Source: Hyphococcus sp. (lineage in GTDB: Bacteria; Pseudomonadota; Alphaproteobacteria; Caulobacterales; Parvularculaceae). From it: 64,000 nt of DNA. The notes beneath the pieces were generated by a model. The model saw nothing but the letters and a program-made list of their open reading frames with translations, was not told the DNA's origin and ran no database searches. Of this stretch, positions 1-10,200 are shown in pieces (positions within the stretch are counted from its first letter, which is position 1; each line of letters begins with the position of its first letter). The DNA is taken from positions 1,075,565-1,139,564 of the forward strand of contig NZ_OZ245810.1 in NCBI RefSeq assembly GCF_965228385.1. Reading direction: 5' to 3'. The position numbers were made by a program, and so were the translations under genes.

Positions 1-666
1 AATCACAATATCTGACGCTTCCGCTTCATAAAAAAACGGATACAGAACTGGATTACCCATATATCCGCCGTCCCAGAAATAATCACCGTCTATCTCTACG
101 GCCTTGAAAAGAAACGGCAGGCAGGCGGAGGCGCAAATCACGTCTGAGGTCACTTCATCTGTGTCAAACACTTTTACCTTTCCCGTGCGCACATTCGTTG
201 CGGCAATAAAAAGTTTTGTGTGTTTGCAATCCTTGAGACTGTCGAAATCAATGCACGCCGCCAGAATTTCGCGTAGAGGGTTTATATCGAATGGATTGAA
301 TTGGTAGGGAGAGAGGGCGCGCGTAACTGTTTCAAACATCTGATAGGAAAATGCATTCACCAGATCATTGGCGCCAAAGTTCAGTGGAAAAGGATTTGCG
401 CGCACGGGACTATAGTACTCACCTGCGTTGCTCACCTCGCGCCAAAGGTTATCCAGCGTTTCGCGTGCGCCCTCACACCCGTTCTTGTGCAGTCCGTATG
501 CGACCGCCACGGCATTTACAGCGCCTGCGCTTGAGCCGGAAATGGCGTCTATTTCTATCCTGGGATCTTCCAAAAAACGGTCTGCGACGCCCCAGGTGAC
601 GGCGCCGTGAGAGCCGCCCCCCTGTAGTGCAAGGTTAATATGCTTCGTAACTGCTGCGCCGGCCAT
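1..666 (-). CDS. Patatin-like phospholipase/esterase, runs off the window edge (possible PHB-related depolymerase)
   Basis: My translation from ATG at 666 gives MAGAAVTKHINLALQGGGSHGAVTWG...ISGSSAGAVNA...FWDGGYMGNP, i.e. the GGGxxG, GxSxG and DGG patatin motifs. The start overlaps the bdhA stop (TAATG). Not in the ORF track. Confidence 0.9.
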   Translation of the reverse strand, partial: MAGAAVTKHINLALQGGGSHGAVTWGVADRFLEDPRIEIDAISGSSAGAVNAVAVAYGLHKNGCEGARETLDNLWREVSNAGEYYSPVRANPFPLNFGANDLVNAFSYQMFETVTRALSPYQFNPFDINPLREILAACIDFDSLKDCKHTKLFIAATNVRTGKVKVFDTDEVTSDVICASACLPFLFKAVEIDGDYFWDGGYMGNPVLYPFFYEAEASDIVI

Positions 667-1448
667 TATTTGGCGACCCAGCCGCCATCGATCTGATGGG
701 CCGCGCCGGTGATTTGCGATGCGGATGAGGAACACAGAAAGACAGCGAGCGCGCCGACTTGTTCTACAGTGACAAACTGTTTGGTCGGCTGCGCTTCAAG
801 AATAACCTTTTGCACCACTTCTTCTTCGCTCATGCCTCGAGCGTTGGCTGTATCGGGTATTTGCGCTTCCACAAGCGGCGTTTTTACATACCCTGGACAG
901 ATTGCATTGCATGTGACGCCAAATTCCGCACCTTCCAAAGCAATCGTTTTGGTAAATCCGACAATACCGTGTTTGGCGGCTACATAGGCGGATTTAAACG
1001 GAGACGCGACGAGGCCATGTGCTGAGGCAACATTGATAATTCTTCCAAAGCCTCGCTCTTTCATCTGCGCGAAAACCGCTTTCGTTGTATGAAAGGCGGA
1101 AGATAAATTGATAGCGATAATGGCGTCCCATTTTCCGGCTGGAAAATCCTCAATCGGCGAGACATGTTGAATGCCCGCGTTGTTGACAAGAACATCGACC
1201 TGACCAAACGCCTCCTGCGCGTCATTGATCAGAGTCTGGATTTCGTCAGGCTTTGTCATATCAGCGTTATTGTATTTCACGTTGACGTCGTATTTCTCCG
1301 CCAGCCGGGAGCGTTCGCTTTCAATTTCGTTCTCGTCGCCGAAACCGTTCAGCATCACATTCCAGCCTTCGGCGGCGAAAGCCGTCGCAATGCCAAGTCC
1401 GATGCCGGAGGTGGAGCCGGTCACAACAGCATTCAGAGGTTTGCTCAT
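666..1448 (-). CDS. bdhA: 3-hydroxybutyrate dehydrogenase (SDR family)
   Basis: VTGSTSGIG, NNAGIQH, YVAAKHG and CPGYVKTPLVEAQI motifs. Start set at MSKPL (1448), inside the longer ORF. Confidence 0.9.
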   Translation of the reverse strand: MSKPLNAVVTGSTSGIGLGIATAFAAEGWNVMLNGFGDENEIESERSRLAEKYDVNVKYNNADMTKPDEIQTLINDAQEAFGQVDVLVNNAGIQHVSPIEDFPAGKWDAIIAINLSSAFHTTKAVFAQMKERGFGRIINVASAHGLVASPFKSAYVAAKHGIVGFTKTIALEGAEFGVTCNAICPGYVKTPLVEAQIPDTANARGMSEEEVVQKVILEAQPTKQFVTVEQVGALAVFLCSSSASQITGAAHQIDGGWVAK

Positions 1449-1589
1449 GGGGTCCGTTCCTTTTTTGTAGAATGATACGCGTAGCACACTTGTTGCGACG
1501 CACAAAAGAGCGCAATATAAAGCTGCGATTGGCGTTGCAAATAGTGCAAGCGCATGGCTAGGCCGTGGTTTGCGAAGGAGAGGCCAACC

Positions 1590-2123
1590 ATGCGCATGAT
1601 GTTGATGATTTTTATGTTCGGCGCGGCGGCGTTTCCGGCGGCGGCGCAAATGTCCGTAACGACTATCGGGGCGACTGACGCCGGGGCGTGCTATCAAAAC
1701 GCGGCGACAGAAGCTTCAAACGATACAGCGCCATGCGACCGTGCGTTAAACGACCAGTCTATCACACGGCTGGATCGGAAAAAAACGTTCGTCAATCGCG
1801 GTGTCATACACAATCGCAATGGCGACCTGATGGCCGCACGGAATGATTTTGATGAGGCGCTGGCTATCGATGATATGTTGCCGGAGGCGTACCTTAACCG
1901 CGGGAACAGTTATTTTCTGGCGGCGCGCTATTTTGAGGCGCTTGCTGATTATGAACGCGCCCTTAGCGCGGGCGTATCAAAGCCTTGGGTGGCGTGGTAC
2001 AATATTGGACTTGTGTACGATTCACAAAAGAATACCGATAAAGCGCGCGGCGCATACGAAAAGGCGCTTGAGGAGAATCCAGATTTTACGCTCGCTGAAC
2101 AAAAGCTAGAGAGCCTTTCTTGA
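1590..2123 (+). CDS. Secreted TPR-repeat protein
   Basis: AAGGAG RBS before ATG 1590, signal peptide, TPR helices (AYLNRGNSYF, AWYNIGLVY). Confidence 0.85.
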   Translation: MRMMLMIFMFGAAAFPAAAQMSVTTIGATDAGACYQNAATEASNDTAPCDRALNDQSITRLDRKKTFVNRGVIHNRNGDLMAARNDFDEALAIDDMLPEAYLNRGNSYFLAARYFEALADYERALSAGVSKPWVAWYNIGLVYDSQKNTDKARGAYEKALEENPDFTLAEQKLESLS

Positions 2124-3334
2124 CTTTTGTAACTCATCTGGAATGCACTGGAACAGGTAAGCATTATAAAGCCGGCCGTCCGCATAACCTTTCGGAAGCG
2201 GGCAAGCCGCTATTTGTGCGTTATGATCTGGAAGGCGTCAAAAACGCACTGAGTAAGGATGAATTGGCCGCGCGCACAAACGGTTTGTGGCGTTATCGTG
2301 AGTTCTTACCTGTGACCAATCCGGAAAATGAGGTTTCTCTGGGTGAGGTGATCTCACCGCTTTTCCGGCTGCGCAAGAGTGAAAAAAAGCTCGGTGTAAC
2401 AGGCGAGGTCTTGATCAAGGATGAAAGCCGCCAGCCTTCAGGTTCGTTCAAGGCGCGCGGTCTCGGCATGGCGGTTTCCATGGCCAAAGAATTTGGCTTG
2501 ACCCATCTGGCGATGCCAACGAATGGAAACGCGGGTTCGGCGCTGGCGGCGTATGCAACGCGCGCGGGCATTTGCTCTACCGTGTTGTGTCCTGACGACA
2601 CGCCGGAATGCCACATCAATGAAACGATATATCAGGGTGCTGACGTTTATCTTGTCAATGGGTATATAAACCATTGCGGCAGGATTGTCGCCGAAGGAAG
2701 AGAAAAAACCGGATGGTTCGACGTCTCTACGATGAAAGAGCCATATCGCGTCGAGGGTAAAAAAACACTCGGCATCGAAGTGCTTGAACAGCTCGGCTGG
2801 GAAATGCCTGACGCCATATTTTTTCCCACTGGCGGAGGGACCATGCCGATTGGGGTATGGAAGGCGTTTGACGAACTGGAAAAGATCGGCTGGATCGGTC
2901 CCGAACGGCCAAAAATGATTGTTGTGCAGGCTGCAGGTTGTGCGCCGATCGTTGAAGCCTGGGAAAGAAATGAAGCGCACGCGCGCGTCTGGGAAGAGGC
3001 GCATACAGCGGCCGCCGGCATTCGCGTGCCTGCCGCCGTCGGTGATTTCTTGATCCTCAACGCCGTTCGCAAGTCGAACGGTTTCGCCGCTGCTGTAGAC
3101 GAGGACGTCATTTTTGACGTCTGGCGCGACATTGGCCGCGAGGAAGGGTATATGCTCTGCCCTGAAGGCGCGGCAACTTTCGCAGCTTACCGTCAGGCGC
3201 TGCAAGAAGGACGAATAGATAAAACCGAACGCGTCGTGTTATTCAGCTGTGCGTCAGGTCTTAAATATCCATCGACAAGTGCTGTGAAAAATATAGATCG
3301 TCATCAGCCCGTTGATTTTAGCCGTTTCAAATAA
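2120..3334 (+). CDS. Threonine synthase-like PLP enzyme (fold type II), paralogue 1
   Basis: PSGSFKARG PLP-lysine motif, TNGNAG, EGKKT, PTGGGT, PEGAA. TTG start overlaps the TPR stop. Confidence 0.85.
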   Translation: MTFVTHLECTGTGKHYKAGRPHNLSEAGKPLFVRYDLEGVKNALSKDELAARTNGLWRYREFLPVTNPENEVSLGEVISPLFRLRKSEKKLGVTGEVLIKDESRQPSGSFKARGLGMAVSMAKEFGLTHLAMPTNGNAGSALAAYATRAGICSTVLCPDDTPECHINETIYQGADVYLVNGYINHCGRIVAEGREKTGWFDVSTMKEPYRVEGKKTLGIEVLEQLGWEMPDAIFFPTGGGTMPIGVWKAFDELEKIGWIGPERPKMIVVQAAGCAPIVEAWERNEAHARVWEEAHTAAAGIRVPAAVGDFLILNAVRKSNGFAAAVDEDVIFDVWRDIGREEGYMLCPEGAATFAAYRQALQEGRIDKTERVVLFSCASGLKYPSTSAVKNIDRHQPVDFSRFK

Positions 3335-3366
3335 ATTATACCGTAGCATGATTATATGAGGCCCCG

Positions 3367-4581
3367 TTGACTTTCATATCGCATCTTGAATGCTCCTATA
3401 CCGGAAAGAAGTATACTGCAGATATTCCTCATAACCTTTCAGAAGCGGGAAAGCCGCTTTTGGCGCGGTACGACCTTGACGCGGTTTCGTCGGCTTTAAC
3501 CAAGGAAATGCTGGGTGGGAGAAGCGAGGGTTTCTGGCGATACCGCGAGTTACTGCCGGTCTCCAAAGCGGAGAACCGGATTTCTCTTGGAGAAATCGTT
3601 ACGCCGCTTGTGAAATTGCCGCGCCTGGCGCAACGTTTGAATTTCTCAGGCGATTTAACCGTCAAGGATGAGGGGCGTTTGCCAACGGGCTCGTTCAAGG
3701 CCCGCGGCCTGGGGCTTGCCGTTTCAATGGCGAAAGAATTTGGTCTTGAGCATCTCGCCATGCCGACTAACGGCAACGCCGGGTCTGCGCTTGCCGCTTA
3801 CGCAAAGGCCGCTGGCATGCGCGCTACGGTTTTCTGTCCGGATGATACGCCGCGCGTGAATATTGATGAAATCGCTTTTCAGGGAGCAGATGTTTACTGC
3901 GTAAACGGGCTTATCGGAGATTGCGGCAAAATTGTCGGGGAGGGACAACGCGATGCCGGTTGGTTCGATGTTTCAACTTTGAAGGAGCCCTACCGGGTTG
4001 AAGGCAAAAAAACCATGGGGCTTGAACTCGCAGAACAATTTGGCTGGGAACTCCCCGATGCAATTTTTTATCCGACCGGCGGCGGCACAGGTCTTATTGG
4101 TATGGCGAAAGCGTTTGACGAACTGGAGGCTATGGGCTGGATCGGCTCAAAACGGCCGAAGCTCATCGTTGTTCAGGCTGCGGGGTGCGCGCCTATCGTG
4201 AAAGCCTGGCAAACCGGCGCGGAACATGCCGAGCCTTGGGAAAACGCACACACGGCGGCGGCCGGTATACGCGTTCCCGCCGCAATTGGCGATTTCCTGA
4301 TTTTGCGCGCTGTCCGCGACAGCAATGGATTTGCCATCGCCGTTGAAGAAGATGACATATTCGCTGCGCGTACGGAAGTTTCACAGTCTGAAGGCTTGCT
4401 CTTGTGCCCTGAAGGCGCAGCAACCTATGCCGCATTCAAGCAGGCGCTCGCAAAGCAATGGATATCGCCTGGGGACAAGGTCGTCCTGTTTAATTGCGCG
4501 ACCGGGTTGAAATATCCGATGACAGCGGCGCCCGCGACAATCGATAAGGATGGCGCTATTGATTTCAGCCGGTTTCGCTAA
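3367..4581 (+). CDS. Threonine synthase-like PLP enzyme, paralogue 2
   Basis: PTGSFKARG, TNGNAG, EGKKTMG, YPTGGGTG, PEGAA. Collinear with paralogue 1; GAGG RBS before a TTG start. Confidence 0.85.
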   Translation: MTFISHLECSYTGKKYTADIPHNLSEAGKPLLARYDLDAVSSALTKEMLGGRSEGFWRYRELLPVSKAENRISLGEIVTPLVKLPRLAQRLNFSGDLTVKDEGRLPTGSFKARGLGLAVSMAKEFGLEHLAMPTNGNAGSALAAYAKAAGMRATVFCPDDTPRVNIDEIAFQGADVYCVNGLIGDCGKIVGEGQRDAGWFDVSTLKEPYRVEGKKTMGLELAEQFGWELPDAIFYPTGGGTGLIGMAKAFDELEAMGWIGSKRPKLIVVQAAGCAPIVKAWQTGAEHAEPWENAHTAAAGIRVPAAIGDFLILRAVRDSNGFAIAVEEDDIFAARTEVSQSEGLLLCPEGAATYAAFKQALAKQWISPGDKVVLFNCATGLKYPMTAAPATIDKDGAIDFSRFR

Positions 4582-4608
4582 ATCCATTAAATGTTTCCGG
4601 AGAAATGA

Positions 4609-5262
4609 ATGTCTGTTCAAAACAAAGGACCGGACCCTTCCGCTGCCTATCCCATGCCCGGCGTCAAGCAGGTCGGATTTTTAAAGCCGCTGGTCGATCA
4701 TCCAATGATCGAAATAGGTGAATACACCTATTATGACGACCCGGCGGGGCCGGCGCATTTTGTTGAGCGCTGCGTTCGCTATCACTTTGAACATATGGGC
4801 GACCGTTTAAGAATAGGCCGTTTCTGCGCGATCGCGTCCGGTGTGCAATTCATCATGAATGGCGCCAATCATGCGCTGGAGGGTTTTTCAACCTACCCAT
4901 TCGCAATCTTCGGCAGCGGTTGGGAAGACGAAACCGCCGATTGGGCCAAAGGTTCGCGCGGCGACACCAACATCGGCAACGATGTCTGGATCGGAACTGA
5001 CGCGCTGATAATGCCGGGCGTTCGCATTGGCGACGGTGCTGTTGTTGGCGCAAGGGCGGTGGTCGCTGCGGATGTGCCGGCATATGGGATAGCTGTTGGG
5101 CATCCGGCGCGGACCAGAAAAAAACGGTTTGATGACAAGACTATTCGCAAGCTGCTGGAGTTGAAATGGTGGGATTGGCCGCCCGAAACGATCACCTCCA
5201 ATCTGTCCACCATCCGCGGCGGCAATCTTCAGGCGCTTTATAGCCTTGAAATCAAAGACTAA
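4609..5262 (+). CDS. Vat/CatB-family xenobiotic O-acetyltransferase (hexapeptide repeat)
   Basis: [21 protein letters not shown]...[13 protein letters not shown] and WWDWP motifs. Confidence 0.88.
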
Positions 5263-5425
5263 TTAAAGATCCGAATTGTTGGCTTCGACGTCGGTTGAAA
5301 AAATTTACTCCCCTATATCCCCTTACGACAAGTAGGTGAGTAATGGCACTATCCAGGAAAAGTGACGTTTCCCGAATCGCGCGCGGTCGAGTACCGTCTG
5401 CAACCGCGCAAATAAAGGTTCAGGT

Positions 5426-6082
5426 ATGGCCGAGGTTAAATGGCGGGCGGCTTGGCGATGGTTTGTGGACATCGCTATTGGCGAAGCCGTTTCGCGCCTT
5501 GTCAATTTCGGCGTCACAAACTGGCAATCCTTGGCCGGGGCATTCGCGGCGTTTGGTCTATCTTCAATGATAGACGGCGCTACTCTTTTTTGGATGTTCA
5601 TGGCGTTCCTTGGGGGCGGAACCTTGGTCGCCATTTGGCGAAACCAAGCGGTGCAGCGACAAATTTTGTACTCTCCGGAGCACAAGCTGCAAATTGGTCG
5701 GGCCGTTTTGGTCGCCGTTGAGCACAAACCTAACACATATCAACTAGGTATTGAGCTTTATAATGCTGGCAATTTCCCAGTATCAACAAAGGTTGATCGA
5801 ACATATGCGCAATTAGGCAAATCGACCGGCAATCCCGGTAAGCGCCTAAATGACGGCGCTGAAATTGCACCCAGACAAACCTCTGTTCTCTGGATGAGTG
5901 AGTATGAACTCGAAGAAAGAAAAAAGCCCTATAAAGGGAAAATTCACTTGGATATTAAGTATGGAAAAAAGGATAAAGAGCGGTATCCGCGCATTGTTTG
6001 GAGTCAGGTGGGTTTCCGCATCGACGGCTCGCCAGTTGTTCCCGTGAATGGAAGCCAAGTAGAACCTTTTGCGTTATCGTAA
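5426..6082 (+). CDS. Hypothetical membrane-anchored protein, IS passenger
   Basis: 218-aa ORF inside the IS, with an N-terminal hydrophobic segment and a beta-rich C-terminal part. AT-richer than the core genes. Confidence 0.7.
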   Translation: MAEVKWRAAWRWFVDIAIGEAVSRLVNFGVTNWQSLAGAFAAFGLSSMIDGATLFWMFMAFLGGGTLVAIWRNQAVQRQILYSPEHKLQIGRAVLVAVEHKPNTYQLGIELYNAGNFPVSTKVDRTYAQLGKSTGNPGKRLNDGAEIAPRQTSVLWMSEYELEERKKPYKGKIHLDIKYGKKDKERYPRIVWSQVGFRIDGSPVVPVNGSQVEPFALS

Positions 6083-6285
6083 TGACTAACACCATCAAGC
6101 AACGCTTTGACCGGCTTTTAAAGAAGATGGCGCACGGCGAACCGGCCTCGAAAACGCTTGCAAAAGGATCGGCAACATCAAGTGCGGCTGCTTCCGAAGA
6201 TTCCAGCGATACTCAAACTCACCGAGATAAACCGGCAGGTACTTCGGTGACATATGAACGTAAGTCCCGCGATAAGCGCCCTTAA
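6082..6285 (+). CDS. Small ORF (67 aa) antisense to the transposase 3' end
   Basis: ATG overlaps the passenger stop (TAATG). Begins MTNTIKQRFDRLLKKMAHGEP. Confidence 0.4.
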   Translation: MTNTIKQRFDRLLKKMAHGEPASKTLAKGSATSSAAASEDSSDTQTHRDKPAGTSVTYERKSRDKRP

Positions 6286-7021
6286 ACAGGTTCCAGAAGC
6301 CTTCGATGGTGTTCGTGTGCGTATCGCCGCGCGCGTATTCTTTTTTCGCGTGATTAATTGTTGAGTGACGGAAACCAAAATCATCAAGATTGTAGAATGC
6401 TTTTGCTTCGTCAGTGTTGATGTGCGTTCCCGGCTTAACGAAATGCTTGATGACCGGGCGAATGGCCTTGCGTCCCCGATGAGGAATGATCCACGTCATG
6501 ACGTTGCCGCCGCGCTCCGCCATGCCGAGAACGATAGACTTGTCGCCAACCGGGTCTTTTGCTCCCTTATCGACGCCGCCAATGAAAGCCTTATCGGCCT
6601 CGACAATCGGACCGCCTTTGCCGCCAAGGGGATCGGAGCCGTCAATCTCGCCCATATATTCGCGGATAAGCCGCGCCATGCGCCACGCCGTTTTGTACGT
6701 TACGCCTAGCTGGCGTTCCAATTCCTTCGCAGCGACGCCGTTGCGGCTGGCGCAGAACAGGAACATCGCGAAGAACCAAGAGTGGAGAGACGTGCGGGAC
6801 TTCTCGAAAGGCGTCCCGGCCTTGGGCGCAACCTGAAAGCCGCAATGCTCACAGGCGTACTGCTGGCGCTTTTTGATCCGGTAGTAGTGCGCCAGCTTGC
6901 CGCACCCTTGGCAGTCATGGCGCTCGCCGTACCGGGTGCGCATCAAATGCTCTAGGCAGGCGTCATCGTCCGGGAACTCATCGAGGAAGTCTTTGAAAGT
7001 AGGCAGTTTTTGCTTGGGCAT
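6095..7021 (-). CDS. IS1595-family DDE transposase
   Basis: Zn ribbon (CQGC...YACEHC), FEKSRTSL, VEAD, NTDE, HTNTIEGFW and YLGEFEYRWN motifs. Confidence 0.92.
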   Translation of the reverse strand: MPKQKLPTFKDFLDEFPDDDACLEHLMRTRYGERHDCQGCGKLAHYYRIKKRQQYACEHCGFQVAPKAGTPFEKSRTSLHSWFFAMFLFCASRNGVAAKELERQLGVTYKTAWRMARLIREYMGEIDGSDPLGGKGGPIVEADKAFIGGVDKGAKDPVGDKSIVLGMAERGGNVMTWIIPHRGRKAIRPVIKHFVKPGTHINTDEAKAFYNLDDFGFRHSTINHAKKEYARGDTHTNTIEGFWNLFKGAYRGTYVHMSPKYLPVYLGEFEYRWNLRKQPHLMLPILLQAFSRPVRRAPSSLKAGQSVA

Positions 7022-7104
7022 GGGATCGTCTCTCTCCGATGCCCTTTATGTAGGTATCCCGGCTACTTGTTTCAAGGGGATAATCTCGAATTTACTCGAC
7101 AAAA

Positions 7105-7137
7105 GAACAAAAGGAGAATAAGGAACATAAAGGGAAC
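7105..7137 (+). promoter_or_regulatory. Two tandem alphaproteobacterial LexA (SOS) boxes
   Basis: GAAC-AAAAGGA-GAAT at 7105-7119 (one mismatch) and GAAC-ATAAAGG-GAAC at 7123-7137 (perfect GAAC-N7-GAAC). Confidence 0.8.
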
Positions 7138-7156
7138 ACAATAAGGAGCACGACCT

Positions 7157-7252
7157 ATGGAAAACGAAAGCTTGCGTGACATCGTCGGACTCGGCGTACT
7201 CATCACCGTCATCGGCGCGGCGCAGTTCTGGGGCGTGCTACTGGGCGCTTGA
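7157..7252 (+). CDS. 31-aa hydrophobic peptide, SidA-like SOS division inhibitor candidate
   Basis: AAGGAG RBS at 7143-7148. Translation MENESLRDIVGLGVLITVIGAAQFWGVLLGA. Follows the LexA boxes and ends 44 nt before dnaE. Confidence 0.7.
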   Translation: MENESLRDIVGLGVLITVIGAAQFWGVLLGA

Positions 7253-7296
7253 CCGCCTGTTGAAAACCATATTTCCGGGAGGTCTTGTAGCTGGTT

Positions 7297-10200
7297 GTGA
7301 CGGCGCAGTTTGTACATCTTCATCTTCACTCAGCCTATTCCCTGGCGGAAGGCGCTATCCCGATCACGCGGCTCAAGGACCTTTGTCTGAGCGACGGAAT
7401 GCCGGCCGTCGCCGTTACGGACACGAATAATTTTTTCGGCGCGCTTGAGGCGTCTACGGTACTGGCCGGAGCCGGTATTCAGCCGATTACAGGATTGCAG
7501 CAAGCCTTTAACGCGGCGGATTTTAGTCTTCCCTTGTCGCGGGGCGGCCGCCAACCGTCACTTGTGCTGCTGGCGCAATCAGAACTGGGCTATCGAAACC
7601 TGTTGAAGATTTCGAGCCGCGCTTTTCTGGATTCCCAATCGGATGACGGTGCGTGTGCGTCGCTGGGTTGGCTGGAGGGGGCTGGCGACGGCGTGATCTG
7701 TCTGACCGGCGGTTTCGACGGCCCGGTTGACCGGCTGCTGCGCGAGAACCGTGAGGCTGAGGCCCGCGCGGCGCTGGAACGATTGAAGGCGATTTTTCCG
7801 GATCGGCTTTATGTGGAAATTCAGCGTCACGACAAGCGGGAGGAAGAAAACATAGAGGCGGGACTTCTAGATCTGGCGTATGATTTGGACCTGCCGCTTG
7901 TCGCCGCAAACGAGCCGTTTTTTCCGCGTCCGGATGACTATGAAGCGCACGACGCCCTGCTTTGTATCGCGCAGGGCGCCTATGTGCATCAGGATGACCG
8001 GCGAAAGGTGACGCCTGACCATTACTTTAAAACGGCCGATGAAATGACGGCGTTGTTTGCAGATCTTCCCGAGGCAATCGAAAATACAATCGAAATTGCA
8101 CAACGATGTGCGTACCGGCCGCGCTTTCACGATCCCATCCTGCCGCGTTTCGCCGCGCAATCGAGCGATGATCTCGAGGCTGAGGCAATGGAGCTCGAGC
8201 GTCAGGTTCGCGAAGGGTTGAAACAGCGTTTGCGCTCTGTCGAACTTGCAGAACCTGAAGACGCATATTGGGACCGGTTGAAAACAGAGCTTGAGATTAT
8301 CAACCGGATGGGATTCCCGGGCTACTTTCTCATTGTCGCCGATTTTATCAAATGGGCGAAGAAGAACGGCGTACCTGTCGGGCCGGGCCGTGGATCGGGC
8401 GCCGGCTCGCTGGTCGCCTGGTCATTGACGATCACCGATCTGGATCCCTTGCGTTTTGGCCTCCTGTTTGAGCGTTTCTTGAATCCGGAACGGATCTCCA
8501 TGCCGGACTTTGACGTCGACTTTTGTCAGTACCGGCGGGATGAAGTTATCCGTTATGTGCAGGAGAAATACGGCCGCGACCGCGTGGCGCAAATTATCAC
8601 CTTCGGAAAACTGCAGGCGCGCGCAGTCCTGCGAGATGTAGGACGCGTTTTAAACATGCCGTTCGGGCAGGTGGACCGGATATGCAAACTGGTTCCGAAT
8701 AATCCGGCTAATCCCGTCACGCTCGCCGAAGCGCTTGAGACAGAGCCGCGTCTTAAAGAACAAAGAGATGATGACGAATCAGTAGCGGCTCTCATTGAGA
8801 AAGCGCTGAAGCTTGAAGGTCTTTATCGTCATGCCTCTACCCATGCCGCCGGCGTGGTGATCGGTGACCGTCCGCTCGATGAGTTGGTGCCGCTCTATCG
8901 CGATCCCCGTTCGGACATGCCCGCGACGCAATTCAACATGAAATGGGTTGAACCCGCGGGTCTCGTAAAGTTCGATTTTCTGGGTTTGAAAACCCTTACC
9001 GTGATTGATCGCGCAGTTTCCCTCGCTGCGCAGCGAGGCGTAACGCTCGACATAAGCAAAATTCCGTTTGACGACGAAGCAACATTTAAAATGCTGGGCG
9101 AGGGCGCAGCTACAGGCGTGTTTCAGCTTGAAAGCACGGGCATGCGTTCGACTTTGCGCTCCATGAAGCCGGATACGCTCGAGGACATCATCGCGCTGGT
9201 CTCGCTTTATCGTCCCGGTCCCATGGAAAATATTCCAACCTATATCGAGCGTAAACAGGGCAAACAGGAGCCTGATTATCTCCACCCCATGCTGGAAGAG
9301 GTTTTGAAAGAAACCTACGGGGTAATCATTTATCAGGAGCAGGTGATGCAGATCGCGCAGATCCTGTCTGGTTATTCTCTTGGCGAAGCGGATTTGTTGC
9401 GCCGCGCCATGGGCAAGAAAAAGAAAGAGGAGATGGACCGGCAGCGTATCCGGTTTGTCGACGGCGCCAAGGAAAAAGGCGTAAATGCAGCAAAAGCGTC
9501 TTCAATTTTTGATCTTGTTCAGAAATTCGCCGGTTACGGGTTTAACAAGTCACACGCTGCGGCTTACGCCTACATCGCGTATCAGACCGCCTGGCTGAAA
9601 GCCAATTATCCGGCGGAGTTTCTCGCCGCTTCGATGTCGCTTGACCGGGCCAATACTGACAAGCTTGCGATCTTTTTGAAAGAGGCGCGCCGAACAGAAG
9701 TTGCAGTGTTGCCGCCGCATATTAACCATTCGCAACCTGACTTCTCGGTAAAGGACGGCGCTATTGTTTATGCGCTTTCCGCGGTGAAAAATGTCGGGGA
9801 AGGCGCTATGGCGCTCATCGCGCAGGAGCGTGAAACAAACGGGCCCTATCGCGATTTAATGGATTTCGCCGAGCGCCTTGACTTAAAACAGGTCGGCAAG
9901 AGATCGCTGGAAAATCTCGCGCGCGCGGGCGCCTTTGACGGGCTTTGCGCCTCGCGCGCCCAAAGCTTCGCCGCCGCGGATTTGTTGATCCGCACCTCCG
10001 CCGCCATGGCTGAAGAACGTAACAGCGACCAGGCGGGTCTTTTTGCGCTCGATACTGCGCCAGCCCTCGCCAAACCGAAGCTGCCAATTGTTGAACCATG
10101 GACGCCGCAAGTGCAACTCGATGAAGAACGTGCGGCGGTCGGCTTTTACTTCAGCGGCCATCCCCTTGACGATTACGAAACAGAATTGAAACGGTTAAAT

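Follow-up and report, generated by a model that had tools for sequence, protein, structure and literature searches.

The 64,000-nucleotide stretch of a Hyphococcus sp. chromosome considered here (contig NZ_OZ245810.1, positions 1,075,565 to 1,139,564; hereafter the window) contains, close to its beginning, two neighbouring genes for proteins that resemble threonine synthase (ThrC), which we refer to as copy 1 and copy 2. We propose that the two genes encode separate pyridoxal phosphate (PLP) enzymes of the NF006050 type, that copy 2 is the standard form of this type and copy 1 a derived form with shifted specificity, and that neither serves as the threonine synthase of the cell. We assign this reading a probability of about 55%.

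Both genes lie on the forward strand and are collinear, with open reading frames (ORFs) at 2120-3334 for copy 1 and 3367-4581 for copy 2; each encodes 404 amino acids, and the start of both is TTGACTTT. The proteins align by BLASTP with no gaps, 262 of 404 positions being identical (65%) and 80% positive (E = 0), a similarity far beyond chance, and one that bears out the first-pass annotation of two collinear 404-residue frames with the same start and many substitutions. Both are fold-type II PLP enzymes and members of NF006050 (PRK08197), the NCBIfam model named "threonine synthase", which they match at 605.5 bits (copy 1) and 635.1 bits (copy 2) against a cut-off of 303, across model positions 3-404 of 406. 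They also match Pfam PF00291 (PALP) at 215.9 and 235.7 bits, and the SFKARG and GGGT motifs are found in each. On TIGR00260, the model of canonical thrC, the scores are 152.9 and 137.5 bits, both under the cut-off of 167.1. Membership among the cysteate synthases, which had been considered earlier, fails for both proteins (55.6 and 72.7 bits on TIGR03844, cut-off 324.9).

The structural comparisons agree with the profile scores, and together they uphold the initial description of the pair as paralogues with the threonine synthase fold. An AlphaFold2 model of copy 1 (predicted local distance difference test score 95.1, predicted template modelling score 0.92) has as its nearest solved structures the class I ThrCs of B. 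subtilis, A. aeolicus, M. tuberculosis and T. thermophilus, with template modelling (TM) scores over the target of 0.85-0.91 and 28-34% identity. Arabidopsis ThrC, which also spans the N-terminal extension, comes next in the ranking; the cysteate synthase CapA2 stands further down, and deaminases and racemases lower still. Matches in the ESM Atlas were to "threonine synthase family" clusters only. With the rest of its family the pair has in common the motif set FKARG, PT(N/A)GNAG, GLIxDCG, STLKEPYRxEG and YPTGGGTGLIG, and it has a 55-residue N-terminal extension with the remnant of a CxxC knuckle; copy 1, however, departs from the family at G242M, L243P, D185H, L105Q and other positions.

Copy 2 has the same active-site loops as its homologues in Alphaproteobacteria, Gammaproteobacteria, Verrucomicrobiota, Planctomycetota, Actinomycetota and marine group II archaea, with the exception of W247A. 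Among species-representative genomes, homologues at 61-70% identity occur in Bradyrhizobium, Azospirillum, Sphingomonas, Ferrovibrio, Halioglobus and Pseudohongiella, and further in Opitutaceae, Pirellula and other Planctomycetota, Actinomycetota and marine group II archaea, a taxonomic spread that implies horizontal transfer. A tandem pair was seen in none of 80 homologue loci. Copy 2 represents the standard version of a highly conserved, horizontally spread subfamily.

Copy 1 differs from this standard at 12 or more loop positions overall, the differences including G103S, L105Q, T107S, L182Y, D185H, L205M, M217L, L219I, Y235F, G242M, L243P, M246V, N376S and T379S. The motif strings by which the two copies were first told apart are all present, GGGTMPIG, VNGYINHCG and LFSCASG in copy 1 and GGGTGLIG, VNGLIGDCG and LFNCATG in copy 2. 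Among the 120 closest database proteins, 105 carry GGGTGLIG and 8 carry GGGTMPIG, and the GGGTMPIG clade (12 sequences) is fixed differently from 127 others at 16 positions. Intermediates exist as well: the proteins P0008, P0013 and P0020 have S103, Q105 and H185, but Leu at 242. As a control, clade-diagnostic changes at sites at least 95% conserved elsewhere were counted in all clades with 4-25 members. The five highest counts (7, 7, 7, 7 and 5 changes) belong to the copy 1 lineage and the subclades nested in it, compared with 1-4 changes for other clades whose stems are about as long. In a sublineage of Hyphococcus the active-site loops of copy 1 appear to have been rebuilt stepwise, and the new state is now conserved.

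Three of these changes are in and after the loop that is predicted to hold the PLP phosphate (residues 238-246), which reads GGGTMPIGV in copy 1 (2831-2857; G242M, L243P and M246V) and GGGTGLIGM, the family standard, in copy 2 (4078-4104). Gly242 is found in 74 of 86 distant full-length representatives, and in the same set Met at 242 and Pro at 243 both fall outside the five commonest residues of their positions. The first-pass annotation had spoken of an altered PLP-phosphate loop. The G242M/L243P change is real, but the GGGT core is intact, and the change falls in the first turn of the following helix, residues 242-243 opening helix 241-255 in the model of copy 1. A loss of PLP binding in copy 1 is not expected, because the GGGT core is untouched, residues 242-243 lie at the helix start and canonical ThrCs have Asn-Ile at the equivalent positions. 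Arg210 and the Schiff-base lysine K111 (SFKARG) are likewise intact in both copies. In copy 1 the predicted Schiff-base lysine, within SGSFKARG, is encoded at 2450-2452 and aligns with Lys61 of T. thermophilus ThrC, and residues 179-187 (VNGYINHCG; 2654-2680), which align with GNFDD of canonical ThrC, bear L182Y and D185H.

Copy 1 is under purifying selection and is not decaying. Within both clades pairwise dN/dS, the ratio of nonsynonymous to synonymous divergence, is 0.03-0.11, values that are rough given the saturation of dS, although dN is much smaller than dS. The concentration of differences in the active-site loops fits the changed specificity suggested at the outset; such a change is well supported by the sequence evidence, if not proven, and the pocket changes most likely shift substrate or reaction specificity. 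A scheme for the chemistry can be proposed. Lys111 would hold PLP, with the GGGT loop and the N-terminal end of helix 241-255 holding its phosphate. An anionic group of the amino-acid substrate, either phosphate or sulfonate, would be bound by Ser203, Thr204 and the invariant Arg210 and then eliminated or replaced at the beta or gamma carbon. The copy 1 changes predicted to line the pocket are G103S and L105Q before the lysine, L182Y, D185H, L205M, G242M, L243P and N376S. A shift of specificity brought about by these changes would leave the cell with two related activities.

Whether the NF006050 type makes threonine was approached by comparing its motifs with those of the canonical ThrCs of one sampled archaeal phylum (278-339 bits on TIGR00260), using the NF006050-type proteins of that phylum and of the window. 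Before and at the PLP lysine, canonical NPTGSFKDRG corresponds to NPTGSFKARG in the NF006050 type; in the substrate carboxylate loop, ASTGNTSA corresponds to P(S/T)AGNA(G/A); in the PLP-stacking segment, DGNFDDA corresponds to DGLI(T/S)DAG; in the substrate anion loop, LNSI-NPYRxEG corresponds to STLKEPYRxEG, which is one residue longer; and in the PLP-phosphate loop, PVGNA(G/A)N corresponds to PTGGGTG(L/I)(I/V)G. The ThrC loops S-T-G-N-T, G-N-A-G-N and G-N-F-D-D are therefore absent from both copies, where STGNT is replaced by PTNGNAG, GNAGN by GGGTG (copy 2) or GGGTM (copy 1), GNFDD by GLIxD (GLIGD in copy 2, GYINH in copy 1) and FKDRG by FKARG. All three ThrC motifs are kept, with small variations, in four of four solved bacterial and 11 archaeal canonical ThrCs; plant ThrC shows single-position variation in them.

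Aligned with T. thermophilus ThrC, copy 1 has Lys111 at the place of Lys61 and Arg210 at that of Arg160, as does copy 2. Thr88 is replaced by Ala, Asn188 by Gly, and Asn154-Ser155 by Ser-Thr plus an inserted residue. We take Thr88, Asn188, Asn154-Ser155 and Arg160 to be contacts of the substrate phosphate in the T. thermophilus enzyme, and the Phe of the canonical GNFDD motif (Phe134) presumably stacks on PLP. The class I and archaeal-type ThrCs (TIGR00260; PDB 1UIM/1V7C, 6CGQ, 2ZSJ and 2D1F) thus have in common with the pair the fold, the PLP lysine and the equivalent of Arg160, and the archaeal enzymes also carry an N-terminal extension with CxxC; the pair differs in the residue inserted in the NS-xNP loop, in its sub-cut-off scores and in having no adjoining thrB. 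The two families are nevertheless close enough for cross-matching. Canonical archaeal ThrCs score 245-315 bits on NF006050, compared with 436-635 for true members, and control genomes such as that of M. jannaschii therefore match the model.

The distribution of the genes points the same way. The source genome, a complete 3.76-Mb chromosome with 12 PALP genes, encodes a class II ThrC elsewhere (a 473-residue frame, C1:1618814-1619896, 275 bits on TIGR00260), which answers the question of a separate canonical thrC posed by the first-pass annotation. Of 61 Parvularculaceae genomes, 57 carry a class II ThrC, a figure that becomes 52 of 53 when only those of high quality are counted. The NF006050 type is found in 31 of the 61, with two copies in the source genome only; the copy 2 type stands alone in 29 others. 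More broadly, a canonical ThrC accompanies the NF006050 type in every bacterial genome checked and in four of six archaeal carriers. Examples of coexistence are a relative with the copy 1 type only (G061), an unrelated genome in which the locus contains glycyl-radical enzyme genes (G062), and a set (G213-G217) made up of one Bradyrhizobium, one Opitutaceae, one Pirellula and two archaeal metagenome-assembled genomes (MAGs), one of them Candidatus Thalassarchaeum. Canonical thrC directly adjoins thrB in the three archaeal genomes checked for this, whereas the NF006050 type does not, and in none of the loci was an NF006050-type gene seen beside thrB or hom. Two archaeal genomes (G235 and G249) have the NF006050 type and neither ThrB nor a canonical ThrC; the protein there is therefore without the standard source of O-phosphohomoserine, with the caveat that alternative homoserine kinases exist.

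These observations make the NF006050 type an accessory gene, and the pair is probably not the threonine synthase of this cell. The NCBIfam name "threonine synthase" for NF006050 is, on the same evidence of motifs and gene content, probably wrong. A literature search for PRK08197 and for second or paralogous ThrCs found no assay of an NF006050-type enzyme, and no experimental support for the family name was found.

The source genome has a third and more distant ThrC-like gene, outside the window, encoding 399 amino acids (G000:C1:2654768-2655967; L148:4769-5968, forward strand). Its product has N-terminal CxxC pairs, a GSHKDRM lysine motif and VPTSRADLIWG with no Gly-rich phosphate loop, and it falls under all NCBIfam cut-offs, the best score being 193 bits on NF004170. 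It is flanked by a TonB-dependent receptor on one side and by an APC amino-acid transporter and a cystathionine beta-lyase on the other.

There are two possible histories for the pair. The genes belong to a conserved block of patatin, short-chain dehydrogenase (SDR), tetratricopeptide repeat (TPR) protein, ThrC-like protein, hexapeptide acetyltransferase and dnaE, which is found in the genus and in one other genus. Two metagenome assemblies (L015 and L016) have the same tandem. In L013, L017, L118 and L119 the syntenic site holds only a gene of the copy 1 type, and in L120 an intermediate form stands alone there; the whole genome behind L013 has no further NF006050-type gene. The remaining members of the genus have one gene of the copy 2 type at the site. 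A tree of flanking proteins groups the window with L015, L013 and L118, followed by L017 and L119, in agreement with the gene tree of copy 1. Because the gene tree follows that of the flanking genes, copy 1 is the resident orthologue, vertically inherited in a Hyphococcus sublineage.

The placement of copy 2 is less firm. In the best maximum-likelihood tree the copy 2 pair joins the G055/G034 lineage of Hyphococcus with weak support (79/59), and the two have in common the rare substitutions W247A and M266L. A tree constrained to unite copy 2 with the copy 1 clade is worse by 12.6 log-likelihood units (approximately unbiased (AU) test, p = 0.041), and a careful tree leaves a polytomy at the relationship of the copies. 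The old tandem duplication originally assumed is thus not demonstrated, and a joint clade of the two copies is marginally rejected. One possibility is that copy 2 came from a related Hyphococcus and was inserted next to the gene already resident at the site; alternatively, there may have been an older duplication followed by several independent losses. Gene conversion between the copies was considered and rejected, the best 60-nt window reaching 78% identity and the longest identical run 17 nt. Nor is there a compositional sign of foreign origin, as G+C content overall and at third codon positions matches that of the neighbouring genes in both copies.

Transfer of related genes is suggested elsewhere in the tree. 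Within the Hyphococcus clade fall the ThrC-like genes of Parvularcula (L020 and L023; genomes G004 and G056), a placement indicative of exchange between genera of the family. Two archaeal MAG contigs, L093 (Candidatus Thalassarchaeum) and L098, carry genes 63% identical to copy 2 that cluster with SAR116 and other marine alphaproteobacterial sequences, which suggests cross-domain transfer unless the contigs were mis-binned.

Among the other explanations, the one that fares best, although we consider it to have perhaps one chance in a few, is that the subfamily consists of desulfonating or phosphoserine-type enzymes of beta-elimination or replacement, with copy 1 acting on a related anionic amino acid. 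For example, a cysteate sulfo-lyase-like enzyme could end a route from 3-sulfolactate through sulfopyruvate to cysteate, by a logic related to that of cysteate synthase. The latter (TIGR03844; Methanosarcina MA3297; CapA2 of Alistipes, PDB 9K3C) converts O-phosphoserine and sulfite to cysteate. It resembles the pair as a ThrC-derived fold-type II enzyme of the same fold, and the amino acid that it handles is an anionic C3 compound. In structure it is a neighbour of copy 1 (TM 0.71-0.76), yet has only 18% identity in the structural alignment, and the low TIGR03844 scores of the pair count against this explanation.

The evidence for such a reaction comes mainly from gene neighbourhoods in other phyla. 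A short PGDH-like 2-hydroxyacid dehydrogenase (312-336 amino acids) directly follows the ThrC-like gene in seven of the 80 loci, which span four phyla (L038, L039, L073, L076, L079, L108 and L113, with the dehydrogenase at about 6200-7200 in each; the taxa are Inquilinus, an alphaproteobacterium, two Opitutaceae, Planctomycetaceae, Pirellula and Actinomycetota). On the gene tree the pairing requires two to four separate placements. In the Planctomycetaceae locus L079, major facilitator superfamily (MFS) transporters and a TauE/SafE sulfite exporter are also present. In Azospirillum (L049) the PGDH-like dehydrogenase is close by (7290-8300) and not abutting, and around the gene are TauD, a TauA-like binding protein, an ABC permease and an Ldh_2 (ComC-family) dehydrogenase. 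Isomerase-like genes occur in L038, L073, L076 and L113, and a PfkB kinase also in L038. The loops of copy 2 are identical to those of these homologues.

The sugar or sulfonate context is, however, seen in only about 10% of loci, and the source genome lacks Ldh_2 and Xsc, has only generic TauE-family genes and has no sulfonate genes near the pair. Co-occurrence of the PGDH-like and ThrC-like genes was also examined within Parvularculaceae and rejected: the two are mutually exclusive, the PGDH-like orthologue being present in only 10 of the 61 genomes, all of which lack the ThrC-like gene. The argument for desulfonation draws on gene context and sequence, and we regard the sulfonate and sugar contexts in other phyla as a lead towards marine organosulfonate turnover.

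No neighbour is common to the distant representatives and the other Parvularculaceae genera, and the synteny with pyruvate dehydrogenase, TctC and IlvD seen in Bradyrhizobium is bound to that lineage. A small pathway involving the TPR and acetyltransferase genes, as the first-pass annotation envisaged, is not borne out, as this gene order extends over two genera only and homologues elsewhere lie in different surroundings. In one Parvularculaceae genus (G020, L029) the ThrC-like gene lies on the same strand between a MocR-type regulator with GntR and aminotransferase-fold parts and an aldehyde dehydrogenase (these flanking genes at 5207-6610 and 8415-9830).

A less probable alternative is that both proteins are ordinary, redundant isozymes of threonine synthase, with the differences of copy 1 neutral or compensatory. 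Both stand far above the cut-off of a model that NCBIfam names as a threonine synthase equivalog; every one of the nearest solved structures is a ThrC; neither copy has lost the catalytic Lys or the counterpart of Arg160; and the scores of canonical archaeal ThrCs on NF006050 indicate that the families are close. A possible further precedent is a divergent ThrC of the cyanobacterium Microcystis aeruginosa, which has weak ThrC and threonine deaminase activity in vitro (PMC12172450). Like the pair it is a second, longer ThrC-like protein beside a canonical one (ThrC2), has an extra N-terminal region and falls between ThrC and IlvA in trees (PMC12172450); it differs in having about 433 amino acids. 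Opposed to redundancy are the scores below the TIGR00260 cut-off, substrate and PLP loops unlike those of every solved ThrC and of the archaeal canonical ThrCs, and the separate canonical ThrC of all bacterial and most archaeal carriers checked. The patchy distribution (about half of the family genomes, and two archaeal carriers without ThrB or a canonical ThrC) and the neighbourhoods, never beside thrB or hom and with sugar or sulfonate clusters in other phyla, also speak against it.

Several points nonetheless weigh against the reading that we favour, of two separate enzymes of which copy 1 is re-specialised. NF006050 is curated by NCBI as a threonine synthase equivalog, and the case that its members are something else is built on motifs and distribution. 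Arg210, the counterpart of T. thermophilus Arg160, is retained and could still bind O-phosphohomoserine. The copy 1 substitutions could be compensatory and involve no functional change, their placement in the pocket relies on alignment to solved ThrCs, and the saturation of dS makes the dN/dS values rough.

The remaining alternatives are much less plausible. An obligate heteromeric enzyme of copy 1 and copy 2 had been suggested, and ThrC-fold enzymes are dimers, the two genes are adjacent and probably co-transcribed, and the tandem is kept in L015 and L016; such an enzyme is very improbable, since each type stands alone at the same site in many relatives (copy 1 in four lineages, with the intermediate in a fifth, and copy 2 in 29 genomes), the whole genome G061 has the copy 1 type only, and each copy has a complete catalytic apparatus. 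Equally improbable is that copy 1 is a duplicate in decay, or a pseudo-enzyme that lacks catalysis and evolves under relaxed constraint. Positions that do not vary among 127 close relatives are substituted in copy 1, some of them in the PLP-phosphate region, but the low dN/dS, the fixation of the new residues in 12 sequences, the intact Lys111, GGGT core and Arg210, the confident AlphaFold2 model and the status of copy 1 as sole copy in four lineages all argue against decay.

The surrounding genes are consistent with the pair being expressed together. As first reported, and as gene content and profile matches confirm, the pair sits between a TPR gene and an acetyltransferase. The TPR gene (1554-2123, forward strand) is the first of the same-strand cluster and encodes a protein with a signal-peptide-like N-terminus and matches to Pfam TPR_1/TPR_2 and related models. 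Its TGA stop and the TTG start of copy 1 overlap by 4 nt (TTGA, read directly), and the same overlap recurs in L013, L015, L017, L118, L119 and L120. The spacer between the copies is 32 nt (3335-3366), with GAGG 5 nt before the TTG start of copy 2. The hexapeptide-repeat acetyltransferase (Vat/XAT-like; 4609-5262, forward strand) begins 27 nt 3′ of copy 2. It matches Pfam Hexapep, and against the Vat streptogramin A acetyltransferase model NF000311 (cut-off 300) it reaches 255 bits, with 168 bits on CatB. The protein is related to the xenobiotic acetyltransferases, and its gene is probably co-transcribed with the pair. This gene is syntenic within the genus, and in relatives variable inserts part it from the ThrC-like gene. 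The terminator scan found no terminator-like site between the TPR, copy 1, copy 2 and acetyltransferase genes, including the spacer between the copies; predicted promoters and terminators did not exceed what shuffled sequence gives; and no Rfam element (riboswitch or leader) was found in window positions 1-8000 at E up to 0.1. Because of the absence of an internal terminator-like site and of an Rfam element, together with the close spacing, the four genes look like one transcription unit.

Divergent from the TPR gene, on the reverse strand at 1-1448, are a patatin-like gene and an SDR gene, a couple that every related locus retains. Across the genus the SDR shows 76-89% identity, and it presumably resembles 3-hydroxybutyrate dehydrogenase. 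On the other side, between the acetyltransferase and dnaE, is an insertion at 5302-7096 that is lacking at that site in relatives. It contains an IS1595-family transposase (6095-7021, reverse strand) and a 218-residue ORF with no Pfam match (5426-6082, forward strand).

Finally, we consider what the pair may mean for the family. Thousands of genes in many phyla are named "threonine synthase" through NF006050, and the name looks doubtful. If it is wrong, pathway reconstructions that count NF006050 genes as ThrC are wrong too, and an enzyme activity is missing from the maps. We raise tentatively, at odds clearly short of even, the idea that the NF006050 subfamily does not make threonine but carries out PLP chemistry not yet described, in which a C3 or C4 amino acid loses an anionic group or has it exchanged (e.g., sulfite from cysteate, at the end of sulfolactate or sulfosugar breakdown), and that copy 1 is a natural case of stepwise re-specialisation with intermediates still present in marine metagenomes. 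The window would then hold the ancestral and the derived activity side by side. The strongest question is which reaction the NF006050 type carries out, and the pair and its intermediates would be a good system for answering it. They form a ready-made comparison, with 65% identity, an invariant pocket set against one with about a dozen changes, and natural intermediates between them. We suggest that comparing the two copies could show what sets specificity in enzymes of the ThrC fold.

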